The notes beneath the pieces are model-generated. The model worked only from the letters and a program-made list of their open reading frames with translations, did not search any database and was not told the origin of the DNA. From positions 89,964,001 to 90,028,000 of the forward strand of contig NC_086108.1 in NCBI RefSeq assembly GCF_963921235.1: a stretch of 64,000 nt of DNA. The letters run 5' to 3'. A program made the translations under genes and the position numbers. Positions 7,993 to 60,187 of this stretch are shown here, piece after piece (the first letter of the stretch is position 1; every line of letters begins with the position of its first letter). Source of the DNA: Mobula hypostoma. Lineage: Eukaryota.

Positions 7993-8450
7993 AACACCAG
8001 ACATTCTGCAGATGCTGGAAATCCAGAGCAACACATACAAAAGTTAGTACATCAATTTCTCTACTTCCAGTAGATTCTCCCCAACCCCTCATTTTCTTTT
8101 CCAATCCTTATTCAAACTCCGCAGTTACCTTTTCTTTTCTCCTCACCTGCCCTTCACCTCCCTCTGGTGCCAATTCCCCATCCCCTCTCCAATGATCCAC
8201 TCTCTTCTCCCATCAGATTCCTTCTTCCTCAGTCTTTTACCTTTTCCAACTATCACCTCCAAGCTTCTCACTACTCCCCCATTCAACTACCTTTCCCTCA
8301 CCTCATTTCACTTATCACCTTTAACTTGTACTCCTGCCCCTCCTCCACCTTCTTGTTTTGGGTTCTTCCCCCTTCCTTTCCAGAATTATGAAGGGTCTTG
8401 GCCCAAGACGTTTGCTCTTTATTCTTCTCCATAGATGCTGCCTGACCTTG
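7993..8450 (+). mobile_element. PLE pLTR remnant with short inverted 5' segment
   Basis: Inverted TTCTGCAGATGCTGGAAATCCAGAGCAACAC at 8003; pyrimidine-rich body; decayed HHR at 8385-8415; ATAGATGCTGCCTGACC. Confidence 0.7.
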
Positions 8451-29985: not shown

Positions 29986-30164
29986 CCTAAAAATAAATCG
30001 TCATTCTTTCCTCTTTCCTGTCATATTTTGATGCAGGATCTCAAACAAAATTTTCCGTATGCACCTTTTTCTCCACGTTGTTGCTTGACTGAATCCTTCC
30101 AGACTTCTGTTTGTTGGATCATTTGTAGATAGTCACTTTATTGTAATTGTAGACCAAGAAAATG

Positions 30165-30820
30165 GGATACAGCAACACAGTAAAAGCTCCAAGCAGCATC
30201 TATGGAGGGAAATGAGCAGTCAACATTTTTGATCACAACCCTTCATCAGGACTGAAAAAAAAGAGAAGAGATTGTCAGTATAAAAAGATGGGGGGAAAAG
30301 TGGAGCAAATGCTGGCAGGTGACAACTGACTCCAGGTGAGGTGAGTGATAGGTAGAGAAAGGAGGGGCAGAGGTGGAAATGATGTAAAAAGCTGGAAGGT
30401 GATTGGTGGAAATGACAGAAGGTAGAATCTGATCAGGGAGGACGGTGTACCAGAGAATAAAGGGTAAGAATTAGAGAGGGGAAGAGTGAGGGGAATGGAT
30501 GGATGATGGGCAAATGAAGAGGAAGAGGAAGGCGGAGGGGAAAGAGGTAGGGAGATTGGGGCTAACTGGAATAAGACAAAAGAAAGGAAGGAACAGAGGG
30601 AAGTGGTTACCAAATTTAGAGAATTTGATGTTCATGCTGTCAAGTTGGAGAATATGAGGTGCTGTTTCTCTACTCTCTGCTCAATTCAGCAGACATGGAC
30701 CGACATGCTGGTGTGGGAATGGGTGGTGGAATTAAAATGGCTGGCTATCGAGTGATCCTGGCTGGTAGAGTGGACAGAGTGGAGGTGTTCAATGCAGCAG
30801 TCTCCCAATCTGTCTCAGGA
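30165..30820 (-). mobile_element. Neptune PLE 3' fragment (GIY-YIG remnant, pLTR, decayed HHR)
   Basis: Minus strand has RLGDC..EHL and VASHFNSTTHSH-like remnants; CTGATGAAGGG at ~30238-30248. Confidence 0.7.
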
Positions 30821-32525
30821 TTTTCCTCATTTCAGTAATGAGCAGTGACATTTAGAAAATATTGTGAGGCAAGTTTACATGTAGTTATAAACTAATTGCA
30901 TAAAGATTTAAGTTATTTTCAGAAGAAACCTCTTTATACATTTGTGTGCACAAGCACAAACTTAACGAAATTCTAACACAAACACACAAAAGAGCTGGGC
31001 CATGTAATAAGCCCTTTCTGCCAACTATTTAATGATGATAGATACAAAGCTGGAGGACTAAATTGCCTAGATGTCGATCTGCCAGGATTGGATCTGTGCA
31101 AAGAATGTTCTGTTTGAATGGAGATATTTAAATTGTATGCAATTGCTACAATTAGGAAAAGCAGATGACAACCTGTGCTCATGGCAACAGTTCTTAAAGA
31201 AAACTGTTGCAGAAGGAATAGGCATTCTTTGTTTATGGCATACCGAATCCAGCAATGCAGTGAAACTACTGCTGTTTTGTATAATTACAGTGCATCAGTG
31301 AAACTTCTGCTATCCCATACCTCTGTGAAAAGGTGGCTGCCCTACGCACTTACACCTTCTGCTTACAGAATAGGATTTTAATCAACCGAGACCTTAATCA
31401 GGACATGGCTTCGAGTGCTTTACGTTTCAGTGAAAACATTGACAGCGATGACAGGAAAACCCAGTGATAATGTTAAAATGTTCCTTTTATGTCGAGTGAC
31501 CACCGAACATGGTGAAGTGATAACAGTATGAAGGTCGGTTCCCTGTGGCAGCATTTTAGCATTTTAATTTCTCCAGTTTTCTTAGGAACAGACATTGCTA
31601 CAGCTGGCATTTTTGGCTGGAATTTACTTCCTTGGCTGCAGTGCTTAGGAATTCTCAGCTGGCAAGGTCTGTTTACAAATAGAAATTACTGGCTGTACTT
31701 AATTACCTACCTGAGTCATTTACATCTGTGCAAAGCCTACAGTACATTTGGGGGATTTGTATAGTATTACTTGGATTTGGGATGCTAGATTTGTTCTGCA
31801 CAAGTCATTTGGAATCGCCAATGAAACATAGGGCCTGAAATGTTCCAAGTTCAGCTGTGTGACCAGAATGGGTATCTTCAATGGTTATGTCCTTCAGCAG
31901 ATATGGTAGAATTCAATAGCATTCAGTTAATGTCCAGAAGATTCAGCAGCCAGAACTATTATTTCAGAAATTGAGTTCAAATCATTAGCTACTCGAAACC
32001 TGATAACAAGGGAATTACCTAAATGTATACATTAAATAAATTCGGAATAAAAAAAAGCTGAGGTTGCTAGATTGTCTTTAAAACTTCTTGACAGGCATTC
32101 CTCAGTCATTTAGAATTGGTCATAACATTTCACCCACCCTGACCATCAACAAGAGTGCTTCTCAGGGTTAGGTGCTCAGTCCCCTCTGCTAATTCCTGTG
32201 TACCCTTGACTACATGACAACTCAGACTTTAAGTTTGCCAATGTTACTGGCCGCATCAAGAACAATGTTGAGGGGGGGTACAGGAATGAAATCAAGAACA
32301 TTGTGCTTTGGAGTCAAAGAATCAACCTAGCTCTTAAACAAGAGGAATTCTGCAGATGCTGGAAATTCAAGCAACACACACCAAAGTTGCTGGTGAACGC
32401 AGCAGGCCAGGCAGCATCTCTAGGAAGAGGTACAGTCGACGCTTCAGGCCGAGACCCTTCGTCAAACCATCTCTCACTGCTCCCCATCTCTAATTTCTTC
32501 TGCTCTTCAACTTTTCGACCACATT

Positions 32526-34137
32526 TTGACTCAGACTTGCTATCACAGCCATATATCCTTTCTTGGAATGTGCTTCCATCACCAACTTACTCCAGTTGGA
32601 TTTAGGATTCGTTTCCGAGACTCTCAATTTGGACCTTCTGAGGATCCCAGGTACTCACATTTTATTGACTCTGCCTCTCGTTGCTTCTCTCGTCAAGCTC
32701 TGAAGGCGACCCTCTCCGCCATGAGGAGGTATTTGGTGTCCCTATCCCAGACCCTTCTACACCTTCGGGACACTTTCTTCGCCGTCTGTATTGGTCCTAC
32801 CCATTATTTCATCCTCCGTCAGATCCATGCCTGCAATCGCCGTTTTTTTGACTTTGTCACGTTAGGCAAAGATCACAAGATCCTACATCTGCGGACCCCA
32901 GAGCCTGCTGGCCCTGGAGCTAGCAGGCATCAACTTCAGATTGCAGCTCCTGCCATTGATCTCGCCGGCTCCAACACCTCAGGGCATATTCAAAACCCGG
33001 ACTCCAGCAACGACCATGGACACCTTCAAAGCGATTGCGCAACCACCAACTGCGACTCCAGCCTTGAACTCCAGGCTGTGTCTTTATGTGCTGCTATTGT
33101 GACTCCCGTCTCTCCTTCCCCCACCACCACTCTGCAATCCCATCTTCCTCAGATCCCATCGTCAGCTCCTGGGTACTCAGAGGTTCTATCTTCCTCTCAC
33201 CTCAACCCTCCCCTCTCCACTGACACCCTCAGCCTCCCCCCTCCCCCCTCTGATCCCAGCTCTCATCCGTGCTGGGTCTTTACCATCCCTTCGACCTTCA
33301 ACTCTCTGAGGCAGAATTCTCTGTCCTCAGTAAGGGCCTCACCTTTGTCCCCCTTCGCCCACACCTCAGCGAGTTCCGTTTTCGCCATGACACGGAACTG
33401 TTCTTCCGCCGTCTCCGTCTCCGAGCCTACTTCTTCGACAAGGACTCTTCCACCCCCACCGATGACCCCTTCTCCTGTCTTCAACCCTCCTCTTCTTCAT
33501 GGACGCCCCGCTCTGGTCTTCTGCCTGCTCTGGATCTCTTTATCGCTCACTGCCGACGGGACATCAACCGTCTCGACTTCACCGCACCTTGTTCCCATTC
33601 CAACCTTACTCCTTCCGAACGCTCTGCTCTCCACTCCCTCCGCACTAATCCTAACCTTACTATTAAACCCGCCGATAAGGGGGGTGCTGTTGTAGTCTGG
33701 CGTACTGACCTCTACCTTGCCGAGGCACAGCGACAACTCGCGGATACCTCCTCTTATTTACCCCTCGATCGTGACCCCACTAAGGAGCACCAGGCCATTG
33801 TCTCCCACAGCATCACCAACTTTATCCGCTCAGGGGATCTCCCATCCACTGCTACCAACCTTATAGTTCCCACACCTCGCACTTCCCACACTTACCCAAG
33901 ATCCACAAACCTGCCTGTCCTGGCAGACCTATTATCTCAGCTTGCTCCTGCCCCACCGAACTCGTTTCTGCATACATCGACACGGTTTTATCCCCCCTTG
34001 TTCAATCCCTTCCTACCTATGTCCGTGACACTTCTCACGCTCTTAAACTTTTCGATGATTTTAAGTTCCCTGGCCCCCACTGCTTTATTTTCACCATGGA
34101 TGTCCAGTCCCTATATACTTCCATCCCCCATCAAGAA
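32526..34137 (+). pseudogene. PLE polyprotein N-terminus and RT motifs up to motif A (frameshifted, truncated)
   Basis: LSEAEFSVLSKGLTFVP, FFRRLRLRAYF, TIKPADKGGAVVVW, PKIHK..GRPII, MDVQSLYTSIPHQE; later RT motifs and GIY-YIG absent. Confidence 0.88.
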
Positions 34138-34138
34138 A

Positions 34139-34178
34139 ATAGTCCTGACGAAGGGTCTCGGCCTGAAACGTCGACTGT
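34139..34178 (+). ncRNA. Minimal type I hammerhead ribozyme motif (intact core)
   Basis: Stem I AGTC/GACT; CTGACGA 34145-34151; stem II GGGT-ctcg-GCCT; GAAA 34165-34168; C-GTC; predicted cleavage after 34172. Confidence 0.85.
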
Positions 34179-34611
34179 ACCTCTTCCTAGAGATGCTGCC
34201 TGGCCTGCTGCGTTCACCAGCAACTTTGATGTGTGTTGCAACCTAGCTCTTAACGTCAGCAAGACAAAAGAGATGGTTGCTGAACTAAGGAAGCATGGGA
34301 TGAACATATCCTTGTCCTCACCAATGACACTTCTGTAGAGATGGGCAACAGCTTGAAGATCCATGGCATGTCCGTCACCAGCATCCTCACATGGAGCTTT
34401 CACACAGATGCAGTGATCAAGAGAGCACATCTGCATATCCATTTTCTTGGGCATCTCAGAAGACTTGGCATGTATACGAAGATTCTCTTGAACTTCTACA
34501 GATGCGCTATAGAGAGTATTGTGACGGGTTACATCAGAGTCCGGTACGGTAACTATTCACATTCAGCCAACTGAACCTGCAGAGAGTGATGAAAGCAGAG
34601 AATGAAGTCTA

Positions 34612-34950
34612 AGATAAAGATCAAGATTATCTTCATTGATCACATTTACCTCAAAACATTGAGACATAGAGTGAAATGTGTCATTTGCATCAATGACCAG
34701 CACAGTCTGAGGCTGTGCTGGGGCAGCCCACAAGTGTCTCCATGCTTCCAACGTTAACTTATCATGCCCACAGCTCACTAACCCTAACCATACATCTTAG
34801 GAATGTGGGAGGAAATGGGAGCACCCAGAGGAAGCCCACATGCTCACTAGGAGAATATACAAACTCCTTACCAACAGCAGAGGGAATTGAAATCTGATTT
34901 CTGGTGCAGTAAAATATTGCACTAACAGCTCTGCTACCATTCCTCACTGC
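34612..34950 (-). mobile_element. V-SINE/HE1-like SINE
   Basis: Minus strand: GGTAAGGAGTTTGTATATTCTCC...GGGTGCTCCCATTTCCTCCCACATTCC. Confidence 0.7.
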
Positions 34951-35137
34951 CAACAGCTTTCTGAACTCATTACCTCTTTTTCACCCCTTCCCAGTGGTGC
35001 TGCCCCATTCTACCTCTCTCAGTTATTCCGCTATTGTCAGCTTAGTATTCTTTTTGTACTACATCAGATTCCACTTCAGTATTTGCACCTTCACTCTTCA
35101 TCGTATTTATTGTTGTATTTATTATTATTATTGTTAT

Positions 35138-35389
35138 TATTATGTTTTATACCTTCAAAACATTAGACTAATTCAAATGAAGATATGGGATTCCAAAATG
35201 CGGGTCTGACTTCAAGTTCACTTTTAAGCAAGGCACACACATATCACATGGTAGCATGATGACAAATGCAAATCATGTATTTATACATATAACCCGTAAT
35301 GAATTATATAAGTGAACAAAAATCCTTAATTAACCTGTAATATATATAAATAATTATTCAAATATTAGTTCAATATTAAATACACAACA
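35138..35389. mobile_element. Short solo LTR (252 bp) with 5-bp TSD GTTAT
   Basis: Ends TATTATG (decayed TGTTATG)...CACAACA; GTTAT at 35133-35137 and 35390-35394. Confidence 0.65.
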
Positions 35390-36011
35390 GTTATCATGCA
35401 TACTCCTTACCTTGTAGGCTTTATGCAAACAAGGAATTTCATTGCACCTTGGTATATGTGATAGTAAACTTATCTAAAATCTTGTTCTTCAGGAATGTAA
35501 ATTGTCCTTTTCTGGTCTCTGATGCAGCACTAATGCAATTGGCTTTCAATTCCCTTGTGATATGGATTTGTATGTCACTCAGTTGAAGACTGGACTGGCC
35601 AAAACTACCTTCTTTACAGTGACACCCATGTCCCAAGAATAAATAATTACCTAAAGGGTGATCTTTAAGGCTCTTGCAGCCTCTAACAGATGCAAGAATC
35701 ACAGCTTGAGACACTGCAGTGATGGTATGATTATTGGGTCAGTTAGAAAACTTCCAAACTACTGTACAACAGAAGTATTTTTGTGAGTTGAAGCAAATAA
35801 AGTATTATAGTGGGTAAATAGATTCAGATATGCAACGGTCATAATCTAATACATTGCCACAGGAGGCTTGAGGCACTCAATAGCTCCCTCTATTCCTTCA
35901 ATTTTACTACCCTTTCACTTCTCGTGGGAAAGTAATGAATTTGCTTCACTTGCTTCATTGTCTCAGTGCTTTAGACCTGGTCTCATGTGTCCCTCAGTTT
36001 ACAAGAAGTTT

Positions 36012-36651
36012 CAATCAACATCATAAGACTAAAAAGCTGACTGTTGATATCAGGAAAGGGGAGTTGGGAGAACACACACTGGCCCTCATTGAAGGTTCAA
36101 GGATGAGCAGCTTTAAGTTCCTGTGTGCCAACATCTCAGAGGATCGTCCCTGGACCTAACATGTTGATGCAATCATGAAAGAGGCAAGCAGGGTCTTTGC
36201 TTGGTTAGTTATTTGATATTTGGTATGCCACCAAAGACTCTAGCAAATTTACATCATGGTGGCATCACAGTCTGGTATGGAAACATTAACGCCCTTGAAG
36301 AGAAAAGCCTACAAAAGGTAGTGGACATTGTCCAGTCAACCACAGGTAAAGCCCTCCCCACCAGCGAGCACATCTACATTGAGCGCTGTCAATGGAAATA
36401 AGCATCCATCATCAAGGACCCCTGCCATCCAGGCCATGATCTCTTCTCGATGCTGCCATCAGGAAGTAGGTACAGGAACCGGAGGTCCCACACCACCGGG
36501 TTCAGGAACATTTATTACCCCTCAACCATCAGGCTCTTTAACCAGGCGGGATAACTGCACTCAACTTCACTTGCCCCATCACTGAACTGCTCCTACAACC
36601 TATAGACTCACTTTCAAGGACTCGTCATCTCATATTCTCGAAATTTATTGC

Positions 36652-40009: not shown

Positions 40010-40135
40010 CTTCATCCCCCATCTTTTCCAGTCTTGATGAAGGGTATCAGCCTGAAACATAGACTGTTTATTCCTTTCTATAGATGCTGCCTGACCTGCT
40101 GAGTTCCTCCAGCATTTTGTATGCATTACTCTTGT
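40010..40135 (+). mobile_element. PLE terminal fragment with HHR remnant
   Basis: AGTC-TTGATGA-AGGGTATCAGCCT-GAAA-CATA-GACT. Confidence 0.75.
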
Positions 40136-46440: not shown

Positions 46441-47466
46441 TCCTGATGACTGGGAGAAATTCAGAGTCCAGCGGAGGAGGACAAAGGGCTTAATTAGGAA
46501 AGCGAAAAAAGATTGAGAGAAAACTGGCAGGGAACATAAAAACTGACTGTAGAAGTTTTTATAGATAAGTGAAAAGAAAAAGATTGGTTAAGACAAATAT
46601 AGGTCCCTTACAGTCAGAAACAGGTGAATTGATCATGGGGAATAAGGACATGGCAGACCAATTGAATAACTACTTTGGTTCTGCCTTCAATAAGGAGGAC
46701 ATAAATAATCTTCCAGAAATAGCAGGGGACAGAGGGTCCAGTGAAATGGAGGAACTGAGTGAAATACATGTTAGTAGGGAAGTGGTGTTAGGTAAATTGA
46801 AGGGATTGAAGGCAGATAAATCCCCCGGGCCAGATGGTCTGCATCCTAGAGTGCTTAAGGAAGTAGCCCAAGAAATAGTGGATGCATTAGTGATAATTTT
46901 TCAAAACTCGTTAGATTCTGGACTAGTTCCTGAGGATTGGAGGGTGGCTAATGTAACTCCACTTTTTAAAAAAGGAGGGAGAGAGAAACCGGGGAATTAT
47001 AGACCGGTTAGCCTAACGTCGGTGGTGGGGAAACTGCTGGAGTCAGTTATCAAGGATGTGATAACAGCACATTTGGAAAGCGGTGAAATGATCGGACAAA
47101 GTCAGCATGGATTTGTGAAAGGAAAATCATGTCTGACGAATCTCATAGAATTTTTTGAGGATGTAACTAGTAGAGTGGATAGGGGAGAACCAGTGGATGT
47201 GGTATATTTGGATTTTCAAAAGGCTTTTGACAAGATCCCACACAGGAGATTAGTGTGCAAACTTAAAGCACACGGTATTGGGGGTAAGGTATTGGTGTGG
47301 GTGGAGAATTGGTTAGCAGACAAGAAGCAAAGAGTGGGAATAAACGGGACCTTTTCAGAATGGCAGGCGGTGACTAGTGGGGTACCGCAAGGCTCAGTGC
47401 TGGGACCCCAGTTGTTTACAATATATATTAATGACTTAGACGAGGGTATTAAATGCAGCATCTCCA
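46441..47466 (+). mobile_element. CR1 LINE internal fragment (RT domain to just before FADD)
   Basis: ORF 46569-47528: [43 protein letters not shown]; no 3' tail. Confidence 0.92.
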
Positions 47467-49800
47467 TCTACCAGCATACCATTCGCCTTTTTCACCGCCT
47501 GCTGTACCTGCATGCCCACTTTCAATGACTGGTATATAATGACACCAGGTCTCATTGCACCTCTGCTTTTCCTAATTGGCCACCAGTCAGATAATAATCT
47601 GTTTTCCTGTTTTTGCCACCAAAGTGGATAACCTCACATTTTATCCACATTAAGTTGCATCTGCCATGAATTTGCTCACTCACCTAACCTATCCAAGTCA
47701 CCCTGCATCCTCTTAGCATCCTCCTCACAGCTAACACTGCCGCCCAGCTTCGTGTCATCCGCAAACTTGGAGATGCTGAATTTAATTCCCTCGTCTAAGT
47801 CATTAATATATATTGTAAACAACTGGGGTCCCAGCACTGAGCCTTGCGGTACCCCACTAGTCACTGCCTGCCATTTTGAAAAGGTGCCGTTTATTCCCAC
47901 TCTTTGCTTCCTGTCTGCTAACCAATTCTCCACCCACACCAATACCTTACCCCCAATACCGTGTGCTTTAAGTTTGCACACTAATCTCCTGTGTGGGACG
48001 TTGTCAAAAGCCTTTTGAAAATCCAATATACTACATCCACTGGTTCTCCTCTATCCACTCTACTAGTTACATCCTCAAAAAAAATTCTGAGATTTGTCAT
48101 ACATGATTTTCGTTTCACAAATCCATGCTGACTTTGTCTGATGATTTCACCGCTTTCCAAATGTGCTGTTATCACATCTTTGATAATTGACTCTAGCATT
48201 TTCCCCATCACCGATGTCAGGCTTACCGGTCTATAATTCCCAGGTTTCTCTCTCCCTTTTTTAAGAAGCGGGGTTACATTAGCCACCCTCCAATCCTCAG
48301 GAACTAATCCAGAATCTAACGAGTTTTGAAAAATTATCACTAATGCATCCACTATTTCTTGGGCTACTTCCTTAAGCACCCTGGGATGCAGACCAACTGG
48401 CCCTGGGGATTTATCTGCCTTTAATCCCTTCAATTTACCGAACACCACTTCCCTACTAACATGAATTTCCCTCAGTTCCTCCATCTCACTGGACCCTCTG
48501 TCCCCTACTATTTCCGGAAGATTATTTATGTCCTCAGTGAAGACAGAACCAAAGTAATTATTCAATTGGTCTGCCATGTCCTTGCTCCCCATAATCAATT
48601 CACCTGTTTCTGTCTGTAGGGGACCTACATTTGTCTTAACCAATCTTTTTCTTTTCACATATATATAAAAGCTTTTACAGTCAGTTTTTATGTTCCCTGC
48701 CAGCTTCCTCTCATAATCTTTTTTCCCTTTCCTAATTAAGCCCTTTGTCCTCCTCTGCTGGACTCTGAATTTCTCCCAGTCCTCAGGTGTGCTGCTTTTT
48801 CTGGCTAATTTGTATGTTTCTTCTTTAGAATTAATACTATCCCTAATTTCCCTTGTCAGCCACAGGTGCACTATCTTCCCTGGTTTATTCTTTTGCCAAA
48901 CTGGGATGAACAATTGTTGTAGTTCATCCATGCGATCTTTAAATGTTTGCCATTGCATGTCCACCGTCAACCCTTTAAGTATCATTTGCCAGTCTATCTT
49001 GGCTAATTCATATCTCATACCTTCAAAGTTACCCTTCTTTAAGTTCAGAACCTTTGTCACTGAATTAACTATATCACTCTCCAACTTAATGAAGAATTCC
49101 ACCATATTATGGTCACTGTTACGCAAGGGGCCTTGCACGACAAGATTGTTAATTAACTGTTCCTCATTGCTCAATACCCAGTCCAGAATGGCCTACTCTC
49201 TAGTTGGTTCCCCGACATGTTGGTTCAGACATCTATCCTGCATACATTCCAAGAAATCCTCTTCCTCAGCACCCTTACCAATTTGGCTCACCCAATCTAT
49301 ATGTAGATTGAAGTCACCCATTAGAACTGCTGTTCCTTTATTGCACGCATTTCTAACATCCTGTTTAATGCCATCCCCAACCTCACTACTACTGTTAGGT
49401 GGCTTGTACACAACTCCCACCAGCATTTTCTGCCCCTTAGTGTCATGCAGCTCTACCCATATCGATTCCACATCCTCCCGGCTAATGTCCTTCCTTTCTA
49501 TTACATTAATCTCCTCTCTAACCAGCAATGCCATCCCACCTCCTTTTCTTTCATGTCTACCCTACCTGATTATTGAATATCCCTGAATGTTGAGCTCCCA
49601 TCCTTGGTCACCCTGGAGCCATGTCTCTGTGATCCCAACTATATCATTCATTAATAATTATCTGCACATTCAATTCATCCACCTTTTTACGAATGCTCCT
49701 TGCATTGACACATAAAGCCTTCAGGCTTGCTTTTACAACACTCTTAGCCCTTATACAATTATGTTGAAAAGTGGCACTTTTTGAGTTTTGCTTTTTGATT
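47467..49800 (-). mobile_element. CR1 LINE ORF2 (APE endonuclease + RT), 3'-truncated
   Basis: [41 protein letters not shown]. Confidence 0.92.
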
Positions 49801-56282: not shown

Positions 56283-57010
56283 TTGCTTTACTCTCTTTAC
56301 ACCCATGACTGTGTGGGTAGGCACAGCTCAACTGCCATCTATAAATCTGCTGATATTGTTGGCAGAATTTCAGATGATGACGAGAAGGCGTACAGGAGTG
56401 AGATGTATCAGCTGGTTGAATGGAATCATAGTAAAAACCTTGCACTCAAAGTCAGTAAGGCCAAAGAACTGATTGTGGGCTTCAGAAAGGGTAAGACAAG
56501 GAACACACCAGTCCTCTTAGCAGGATCAGAAGTGAAGAGATTGAGCAATTTCAAGCTCCTGGGTGTCAAGATCTCTGAGGATATAACCTGGACCGAAAAG
56601 CACAACATCGGCTATATTTCATTAGAAGTTTGAGGAGATTTGGTATGTCACCTAAAACACTTGAAAATTTCTACAGATGTACCATTCTAACTGGCTGCAT
56701 CACAGTCCGGTATGAGGAGGAAGGGAATACTGCACAGGATCGAAGTAAGCTGCAGAGAGTTGTAGACAGTCAGCTCCATCACGGGCACTAGCCTCTGTCG
56801 TATCCAGGACATCTTCAAGGAACTTTGCCTCAAAAAAGTGGCGTCCACCATTAAGGACCCCCTTCACATAGGTCACGTCTTGTTCACATTGCTACCATCA
56901 GGAAGGAGGGACAGCCTGAAATCACACTCAAAGATTAATTCAAGTTTTATTTTTCTATTATTACGTATTGCATTGTACTGTTGCTGCCAAGTCAACAAAT
57001 TTCACAACAC
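56283..57010 (+). mobile_element. Rex1/Babar LINE 3' fragment
   Basis: LYSLYTHDCV...AYRSE..LVEW...KAKELIVGFRKG. Confidence 0.85.
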
Positions 57011-58587: not shown

Positions 58588-60187
58588 CAGTTGAAGTCAG
58601 AAGTTTACGTACACCTTAGCCAAATACATTTAAACTCAGTTTTTCACAATTCCTGACATTTAATCTTAGAAAACATTTCGTGTGTTAGGTCCGTTAGGAT
58701 CACTACTTTATTTTAAGAATATCAAATGTCAGAATAATAGTAGAGAGAATGATTTATTTCAGCTTTTATTTCTTTCATCACTTTCCCAGTGGGTCAGAAG
58801 TTTACATACACCTTGTTAGTATTTGGTAGCATTCCATTTAAATTGTTGAACTTGGGTGAAATGTTTTGAGTAGACTTCCACAAGCTTCTCACAGTAAGAA
58901 TTTTGTTCCATTCTTCCAGACAGAAACTGACGTAACTGAGTCAGGTTTGTAGGCCTCCTTGCTCACACACACTTTTTCAGTTCTGCCCACAAATTTTCTA
59001 TCAGAAAATGATGTCAAGTCTGGTTCATCCTTGGGAGCAATTTCCAAACACCTGAAGGCACCACGTTCATCTGTACAAACAATAGTACGCAAGTATAAAC
59101 ACAATGGGACCACGCAGCCATCATACTGCTCAGGAAGAAGACGCATTCTGTCTCCTAGAGATGAACATACTTTGGCGCAAAAAGTGCAAATCAATCCCAG
59201 AACAACAGCAAAGGATCTTGTGAAGATGCTGGAGGGAACAGGTAGACATGTATCTATATCCACAGAAAAACGAGTCCTATATTGACATAACCTGAAAGGC
59301 TGCCCATCAAGGAAGAAGCCACTGCTCCAAAACCACCACAAAAAAAAGCCAGACTACAGTTTGCAAGTGCACATTGGGACAAAGATCTTACTTTTTGGAG
59401 AAACGTCCTCTGGTCTGATGAAACAAAAATTGACCTTCATTATATTTGGAGGGAAAAGGATGAGGCTTGCAAGCCAAAGAACACCATCCCAACCATGAAG
59501 CATGGAGGTGGCAGCATCATGTTGTGGGAGTGCTTTGCTGCAGGAGGGACTGGTGGACTTCACAAAATAGATGGCATCATGAGGAAGGAAAATTATGTGG
59601 ATATATTGAAGCAGAATCTCAAGATATCAGCCAGGAAGTTAAAGCTTGGTTGCAAATGGGTCTTACAAATGGAGAATGACTCCAAGCATACCTCAAGTTG
59701 TGACAAAATTGCTCAAGGACAACAAAGTCATAGTATTGGAGTGGCCATCACAAAGCCCTGACCGCAATCCGAAAGAATTGTGGGCAGAACTGAAAAAGGG
59801 TGTGCGAGCAAGGAGACCTACAAACCTGACTCAGTTACACCAGTTCTGTCTGGAGGAATGGAACAAAATTCCAGCAACTTACTGTGAGAAGCTTATGGAA
59901 GGCTACTCAAAACGTTTCACCTAAGTTAAACAATTTAAAGGCAATGCTACCAAATGCTAACAAAGTGTATGTAAACTTCTGACCGACTGGAAAAGTGATG
60001 AAAGAAATAAAAGCTGAAATAAATCATTCTCTCTACTATTCTGACATTTCACATTCTTAAAATAAAGTAGTGATCCTAACTGACCTAAGACAGGGAATGT
60101 TTTCTAGGATTAAATGTCAGGAATTATGAAAAAAACTGAGTTTAAATGTATTTGGCTAAGGTGTATGTAAACTTCTGACTTCAACTG
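58588..60187 (+). mobile_element. Sleeping Beauty/Tdr1-type IR/DR Tc1 transposon (defective)
   Basis: Termini CAGTTGAAGTCAGAAGTTTAC / GTAAACTTCTGACTTCAACTG; inner DRs at ~58790 and ~59965; TA on the right, TG (decayed TA) on the left. Confidence 0.95.
59015..59960 (+). pseudogene. Tc1 (DD34E family) transposase pseudogene lacking its N-terminus
   Basis: KSGSSLGAISK..PRSSVQTIVRKYK, GRRR, RKKPLLQN, VLWSDETK, KHGGGSIMLW, WPSQSPD, KGNATK; stop at 59283 and frameshifts. Confidence 0.93.

Follow-up and report, generated by a model that had tools for sequence, protein, structure and literature searches.

The question raised by the locus described here is how a Penelope-like element (PLE) came to be inserted with one inverted end, one direct end, and only half of its open reading frame (ORF), and whether the hammerhead ribozyme (HHR) motif in its ends had any part in forming the junctions. 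The element lies in a 64,000-nt stretch of the Mobula hypostoma genome (contig NC_086108.1, positions 89,964,001–90,028,000), which is called the window below. The initial annotation described it as a recent, trans-mobilised deletion derivative of a Neptune element whose junctions may be guided by HHR structure. The explanation preferred here, which is held tentatively as plausible but short of probable, is one insertion in which twin priming took place on RNA that had not been cleaved and the template switch fell at a putative hot spot. This grading refers to the mechanism of the junctions and not to the identity of the element. The family is very high-copy, and the present copy is defective and internally deleted.

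A repeat search of the window delimited the insert at 32338–34238, flanked by exact 15-bp direct repeats of CAACCTAGCTCTTAA. Four of 24 listed sequencing runs (X1, X5, X10, and X12) were compared with positions 31900–34700. In organism A, both flanks showed 0 differences and contigs entered the element at both ends; in organism B, the same element ends were present with 9 differences in 871 nt (flanks ~1.0% apart). In organism D, which was ~9% diverged (74/809 nt), one contig joined 32298 to 34239, which represented the empty site with one copy of the target-site duplication (TSD). This contig also lacked the 24 nt to the left of the TSD (32299–32322), probably through a deletion in the lineage of D, because the 24 nt are in frame in the insertion target, an old long interspersed nuclear element (LINE) that we take to be L2-like. 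In a tblastx comparison, a related LINE copy at 56339–56489 ran uninterrupted across a single TSD unit. The empty site in D and the continuous LINE copy showed that the TSD is genuine, as the initial annotation had proposed, and ruled out a chance repeat. An assembly artefact was ruled out by the presence of both ends in contigs of two organisms, although no listed contig spanned the HQE joint.

The insertion is older than the split of A and B and younger than the split from D. The copy departed from the majority letter of the family at no fewer than 21 body positions (21 of the 29 body rows among 40 of 445 rows, at ≥90% family depth in both X1 and X5), many of which were C>T or G>A. The term "recent" holds only loosely for an insertion that is common to A and B and carries two frameshifts and at least 21 body differences.

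The ORF copy was identified with a profile built from 26 full-length homologues (matches at iE 4e-74 and 7e-44). It spanned profile positions ~11–464 of 898 in three frames, started nearly at the N-terminus (profile position ~11–14) with the ORF start CGTCAAACC, and stopped at the reverse transcriptase (RT) motif DVQSLYTSIPHQE at position 34137 (profile 464/898). Frameshifts were located at ~33287–33298 and ~33871–33895. The rest of the RT, the endonuclease (EN), and the 3' untranslated region (UTR), an estimated ~1.6–1.7 kb, were absent from the copy. Among the best 120 of 126 protein matches, the middle of the ORF shared 83–87% identity with predicted proteins of Hemitrygon, Mobula, and Hypanus, 65–69% with Chiloscyllium, and 50–54% with full-length RT plus GIY-YIG proteins. 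Together with the profile match, these identities are those of a PLE-type RT ORF, and the element almost certainly belongs to the PLEs. The matches of 83–87% point to a probable batoid host. A local Pfam search with the three ORF frames returned a chance match only. Related DNA was confirmed in none of the metagenome contigs (116 pattern matches with the protein query, 0 confirmed; 0 with the motif query), and 0 matches were obtained in viral contigs and in prokaryote genomes. The protein cluster look-up gave singletons only.

The clade was assigned through the homologues. The GIY-YIG motif, which falls within the deleted part of this copy, was present in 56/122 homologues. The Cys-rich CX2-5CxxC linker between RT and EN, also deleted here, was found in 46 of these 56 and was missing only in distant homologues (10/10 misses, P0088 and later). 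The linker in the close relatives excludes Penelope/Poseidon for those relatives, but not Nematis. Vertebrate PLEs are described as Neptune and Poseidon only (Li 2026, 10.64898/2026.07.22.740005). With only these two clades in vertebrates, the assignment to Neptune proposed initially is likely. The frame running through the pseudo-long terminal repeat (pLTR) into the body contained no in-frame ATG nearby in this copy, which suggests a spliced upstream start.

The anatomy given initially, with an inverted segment, an ORF half ending at HQE, and a terminal segment, was borne out. In an inverted-repeat search, the arms 32371–32464 and 34146–34239 were 98% complementary over 94 nt with two mismatches, one between 34168 (A) and 32442, representing a GAAA>GAAG change, and the other between 34229 and 32381. 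The left arm started at U4 of the hammerhead core and reached 33 nt past the right end. This 33-nt extension matches the PLE "tail" already known, described as 30–40 bp at one end of an insertion (PMC8557442, PMC3846280, PMC11167929). Thus, pLTRs, an inverted 5' copy, a one-end tail of 30–40 bp, and a TSD of the variable PLE kind were all present in the insert.

At the inversion joint, the 5 nt CGTCA may represent a microhomology between the reverse strand of the hammerhead core and the native border of tail and ORF. The tail of the family probably continues with GCGT past the arm end, according to the contig letters: loose ends before 32336 ended with ACGC in X1, X5, and X12 (agreement 0.42–0.44) and differed in X10, and the insert listing gave CGC. 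The letters GCGT overlapped the body start CGTCA, and the tail frame (..LQNSSC) was in register with the body frame (RQTISH). Considering the overlap and the shared frame, the inverted arm and the body were probably neighbours in the native element, ~1 base apart. When the N-terminus of the ORF was used as a protein query, the one match obtained started downstream of the tail border. The neighbouring position in the native element and the 5-nt microhomology would be those expected of twin priming on a single RNA, a concept that comes from work on L1 elements.

At the deletion joint, no microhomology was found, and two A residues belonged to neither native flank. The family sequence restarted at 34140, 1 nt upstream of helix I of the hammerhead, consistent with the deletion junction near stem I noted before. 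The native continuation after HQE was GLKALRFF in 134, 133, and 119 contigs of X1, X5, and X10, respectively. The native sequence before 34140 was a pyrimidine tract followed by CAG-T in 276, 165, 125, and 31 contigs of the four runs, with an upstream branch-point match that read TACTAAC in X1 but TACTATC in X5, X10, and X12. By these letters, the boundary before helix I is 3' splice-site-like, with an exon that would start 2 nt before helix I. In older copies with an intact context, the pyrimidine tract ended with CAG, of which AG formed the first two bases of helix I. In D. virilis Penelope, whose intron is 75 bp long (PMC2377424), the 5' end of helix I is likewise the point at which the intron stops (PMC4209133).

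The same boundary was used in another family copy, in DNA run X1, in which 32650 within a donor-like CAG/GT site was joined exactly to T plus 34140. This joint was a single row among the 12 of 520 inserts listed, with a depth of 112 compared with ~11 for single-copy flanks, although summed contig depth was not taken as copy number. It has the exact form expected of a spliced, reinserted copy and possibly represents a nearly ORF-less, spliced non-autonomous family. A spliced origin, the case to which the term trans-mobilised would truly apply, was also considered for the present deletion, with the interior removed from RNA between a cryptic donor, HQE/G, and the acceptor, followed by insertion in trans and a later change of GT to AA. 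A splice of this kind would leave exactly the 2 nt that separate 34137 from 34140, the frame is kept, and the copy joined at 32650 used the same acceptor. This origin is nevertheless quite unlikely, since the family consensus has GC and not GT where the donor would lie, neither letter of the joint is the one predicted, so that two adjacent substitutions would be needed in a copy just 1–3% diverged, and PLEs are noted for intron retention (PMC8557442). The description as trans-mobilised gained nothing from the comparison, as no second HQE-HHR joint occurred among the 15 of 1115 joints and 12 of 520 inserts listed, from which any joint with the very letters of the reference would be missing.

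Within the same joints, 10 of the 11 that connected an inverted arm to a direct arm landed at 34140–34155. When three edge rows ("between: not known") were left out, 7 of 8 landed there, which gave a binomial probability of 9e-5 for 16 of 79 positions. Three of the eight older copies in the window started at about −4 to +8 nt from helix I. These positions are suggestive of a hot spot at the acceptor boundary or hammerhead edge. Many head-to-head pLTR hairpins without an ORF between the arms, with joints of 32358–32440 to 34140–34191, were also observed, several of them in both A and B.

A later loss of DNA offers another account of the deletion, in which a full-length inverted-arm copy was inserted first and ~1.65 kb was removed afterwards in a DNA repair event with addition of two A, so that its position near the hammerhead would reflect chance and ascertainment among a very large number of copies. 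The lack of microhomology and the 2-nt insert suit end-joining, the two frameshifts and ≥21 differences allow time for decay, and internal deletions of PLEs have been published (PMC3846280; PMC8557442). The break, however, lies within 1 nt of the boundary used by other joints of the family, for which a uniform model gives an estimated ~0.3% (~5/1650 positions). This account is therefore considered unlikely, though it keeps some weight.

In the preferred explanation, twin priming on uncleaved RNA, the element nuclease would nick both strands 15 bp apart in one target-primed insertion, and each 3' end would prime reverse transcription of RNA that had not been cleaved, starting at the tail-less site (34238) on the right and at the tail site (32338) on the left. 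From the left, synthesis would pass back along the upstream pLTR as far as the core of the hammerhead and so produce the inverted arm. The right cDNA would copy the downstream pLTR to 34140, the putative 5'-end hot spot of the family at the acceptor boundary, gain two A, resume at HQE, and run to the border of tail and ORF, the starting point of the left primer. A join through CGTCA would then unite both cDNAs in the manner of twin priming. The TSD, the empty site, the tail, the arms, the letters at the junctions, and the uncleaved passage were observed; twin priming, the hot spot, and a deletion at the time of insertion are what we infer. For the Poseidon element of Anolis, both strands were nicked and extended in vitro, two internal RT starts bounded the tail, and the template was uncleaved RNA (PMC11167929). 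The mechanism fits that element in its priming on both strands, its two starts, and its uncleaved RNA. No paper in the literature search, from which subscription literature including mechanistic reviews was mostly absent, tied PLE junctions to an acceptor or to twin priming.

Several points weigh against this explanation. The consensus of the loose ends before 32336 reached an agreement of only 0.41–0.44, and the native continuity from tail to ORF was absent from the contigs and proteins searched. Two of the eight older window copies started at −17 to −33 and three beyond −110, in upstream alignments that were noisy and in which the present copy itself produced a false long alignment. All arm-to-arm joints listed had sides of <30 nt, and the reference start at 34140, together with the hammerhead being best conserved across subfamilies, biases joints toward this position; the cluster window 34140–34155 was picked after the data were seen. 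No listed contig spanned the HQE joint. A wider proposal, under which the hammerhead's 5' edge would serve this ray Neptune family as both a functional 3' splice site and a preferred end or jump point of the RT, is doubtful as it stands.

The hammerhead was as initially written, with a loop-less palindromic ACGT stem III. Helix I was formed by 34141–44 and 34173–76, followed by CUGACGA (34145–51), a bulged A, helix II (34153–64), GAAA (34165–68), the loop-less ACGU, and C17 at 34172. Hence the features of a minimal type I hammerhead (CUGANGA, GAAA, UH, helices I and II, and a palindromic stem III) were all found on the direct arm. The inverted copy, with GAAG and an end inside the core, is predicted to be dead. 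A motif descriptor, composed only after the site was known, found one site in the 64-kb window and none in 150 Markov-shuffled windows on both strands, whereas an Rfam search over 30000–36500 returned no hammerhead at E ≤ 10 and only two weak snoRNA chance matches.

In the secondary-structure model, the monomer folded as a rod with the core paired to the cut site (−10.0 kcal/mol; open form, −6.0). For the active dimer, −9.5 kcal/mol was predicted, less favourable than a pair of rods (−20) or a non-catalytic duplex (−28.3), in a model that excludes tertiary contacts and help from proteins. In a transcript across the insert, the motif was predicted to be buried in the arm duplex (−193). These energies agree with the low or protein-assisted activity reported for such motifs (PMC4209133; PMC11167929; PMC6765202). 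The hammerhead would appear to be an ordinary inherited part of the pLTR that needs a partner copy or a protein to cut.

Guidance of the junctions by HHR structure, as first suggested, may still take the form of a stall, in which the folded 36-nt rod stops the RT, or snaps the cDNA back after being copied, so that ends and jumps pile up at its 5' edge. Both joints lie at this edge (34140 and the equivalent of 34146), the rod itself is predicted to form, and several joints of the family fall inside the motif (34144–34155), beyond the acceptor alone. The fold, however, was not stronger than that of shuffled sequences (z −0.5 to −1.1), and the acceptor or the 5' end of the RNA accounts for the position without any structure. 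Moreover, when a polymerase meets a hairpin, the stall usually comes at entry, on the 3' side. A stall is rather improbable, and the acceptor boundary is the better-supported rival.

Self-cleavage by the hammerhead, with the cut RNA ends becoming the junctions, is highly improbable. The core of the right motif is intact, and dimeric minimal hammerheads show weak cleavage in vitro (PMC4209133). One inverted arm of the family ended near the cut site (32436, equivalent to 34174). An end would be expected at 34172/34173, however, and the joints lie 32 and 26 nt upstream of it. The scissile bond was crossed unbroken by both arms, which indicates that cleavage made neither junction. In addition, the direct arm started at 34173 in 0 of the 11 arm-to-arm joints listed, and HHR mutants had no effect on insertion of the Anolis element (PMC11167929). 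The features of the locus are collected in Table 1.

Table 1. Features of the insert and of its target site (positions in the window)
Feature	Position	Strand	Basis
Insertion target, left part: old LINE fragment	32082..32322	+	tblastx to other window copies
Left TSD, 15 bp	32323..32337	+	exact repeat; empty site in organism D
PLE tail, 33 nt, inverted end only	32338..32370	-	right end without tail
Inverted pLTR arm	32371..32464	-	92/94 nt identical to right end
Truncated hammerhead with A15.1>G at 32442; C3 and helix I 5' strand missing; predicted dead	32434..32464	-	sequence
CGTCA at inversion joint, putative 5-nt microhomology	32460..32464	+	
Neptune-type PLE ORF (likely clade), 5' half, two frameshifts	32465..34137	+	profile and protein matches
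CAG/GT donor-like site	32648..32652	+	joined to acceptor in another family copy
Two extra A at deletion joint, in neither native flank; frame kept	34138..34139	+	contig comparison
Direct pLTR end without tail	34140..34238	+	sequence, inverted-repeat search, contig comparison
Minimal type I hammerhead, loop-less palindromic stem III, predicted cut after C34172	34141..34176	+	sequence
Right TSD, same 15 bp	34239..34253	+	exact repeat
Insertion target, right part of same LINE	34254..34559	+	tblastx

The window contained nine related pLTR loci besides this insert. Eight older hammerhead pLTR copies with 70–83% identity were located at 40030(+), 28429(−), 18580(−), 26992(−), 62299(−), 30253(−), 6597(+), and 8382(+). 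A tail-bearing inverted stub occupied 7994–8045(−), and 7994–8450 formed a second inverted-arm structure. A decayed older PLE 3' end at 30850–30190 (−) comprised a GIY-YIG remnant (30850–30662), a pyrimidine-rich UTR of ~400 nt, and a hammerhead, which indicates the native order of endonuclease end, ~400 nt, and hammerhead. A protein search with the pLTR frame gave two matches, P0121 (Mobula hypostoma STARD3NL isoform X3) and P0122 (Mobula birostris CoA synthase), and the translated pLTR/hammerhead frame in these host proteins suggests exonisation in gene models. The peptide SVSPDEG in P0121 fits acceptor splicing and plain genomic reading alike and was not used as evidence. Elsewhere in the window, a LINE RT region, presumably CR1-like, formed a 1-kb inverted duplication (93%) at 46442–47466 and 47768–48787 with open frames of 305–319 aa, which perhaps represents a LINE inversion or two head-to-head insertions. 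A transposase remnant at 58588–60187, which we take to be Tc1-like from its motifs, lay between inverted repeats of ~410 nt (91%) inside a LINE.

As a single copy, the insert matters little, as every feature named here has already been published for PLEs. Its value is that of a clean and dated trace of how a PLE integrated, complete with empty site, one-end tail, and uncleaved ribozymes in both arms. The uncleaved ribozymes agree with the in vitro finding of insertion without cleavage (PMC11167929). If the hot spot and twin priming hold across the family, the origin of inverted pLTRs and the role of the hammerhead would become testable from genomes alone, and inverted-arm copies would record twin priming from two fixed starts on one uncleaved RNA. 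The family would also shed spliced, ORF-less derivatives that reinsert, of which the copy joined at 32650 would be an example, despite the intron retention of PLEs. With pLTR copies recurring every few kb, the genomes of rays would lend themselves as a dataset on PLE integration and the purpose of the ribozyme.

The hammerhead resembled the minimal HHRs in the pLTRs of metazoan PLEs, with Xena, Poseidon, and fish Neptune among them (Cervera and de la Pena 2014, PMC4209133) in its type I form, loop-less helix III, palindromic 15.2–16.2, short helix I, unpaired base before helix II, closing pair of the G10.1–C11.1 type (here G with U), and predicted activity as a dimer. It differed in helix II, which had 4 bp with a G·U first pair compared with 7–8 bp in Schistosoma (PMC4209133). 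No chondrichthyan example was noted in the text consulted, although supplements may list some. Minimal palindromic dimer-type hammerheads of fish Neptune elements are already published and not new here.

The insert as a whole resembled a Pen2_Av derivative carried by scaffold 304 in Adineta vaga (Arkhipova 2013, PMC3846280), which has inverted pLTRs, a 10-bp TSD, an internal deletion, and a defective ORF, and Pen2a, which carries a tail on one inverted end (PMC3846280). Pen2_Av, however, belongs to the Penelope/Poseidon group and its deletion was microhomology-mediated (PMC3846280), whereas the present insert had no microhomology at its deletion, no upstream direct pLTR, and a break at the hammerhead edge of the pLTR. 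In PAc, a Poseidon element of Anolis carolinensis (Frangieh 2024, PMC11167929), the hammerhead also overlaps the coding frame at the pLTR, but this element is of a different clade and has its own ATG inside the ribozyme (PMC11167929).

Non-LTR retrozymes are also pLTR-derived with a type I HHR, and they were present in the single chondrichthyan genome sampled (Li, Clavereau and Pollet 2026, 10.64898/2026.07.22.740005). They consist of short non-coding tandem units, each with an HHR, whereas this single insert measures 1.9 kb, retains half an ORF, and has inverted ends. A retrozyme was rejected as an identity for the insert, which has a single direct HHR, an ORF remnant, and an inverted arrangement in place of tandem units. 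Inverted pLTRs, tails, TSDs, and internally deleted PLE copies are all in print already. L1 twin priming, as Ostertag and Kazazian are said to have described it in 2001, inverts the 5' part of the element with near-zero loss and short microhomology. Unlike in L1, the second priming site here would be a fixed site of the family, the tail end, and not a chance internal match.

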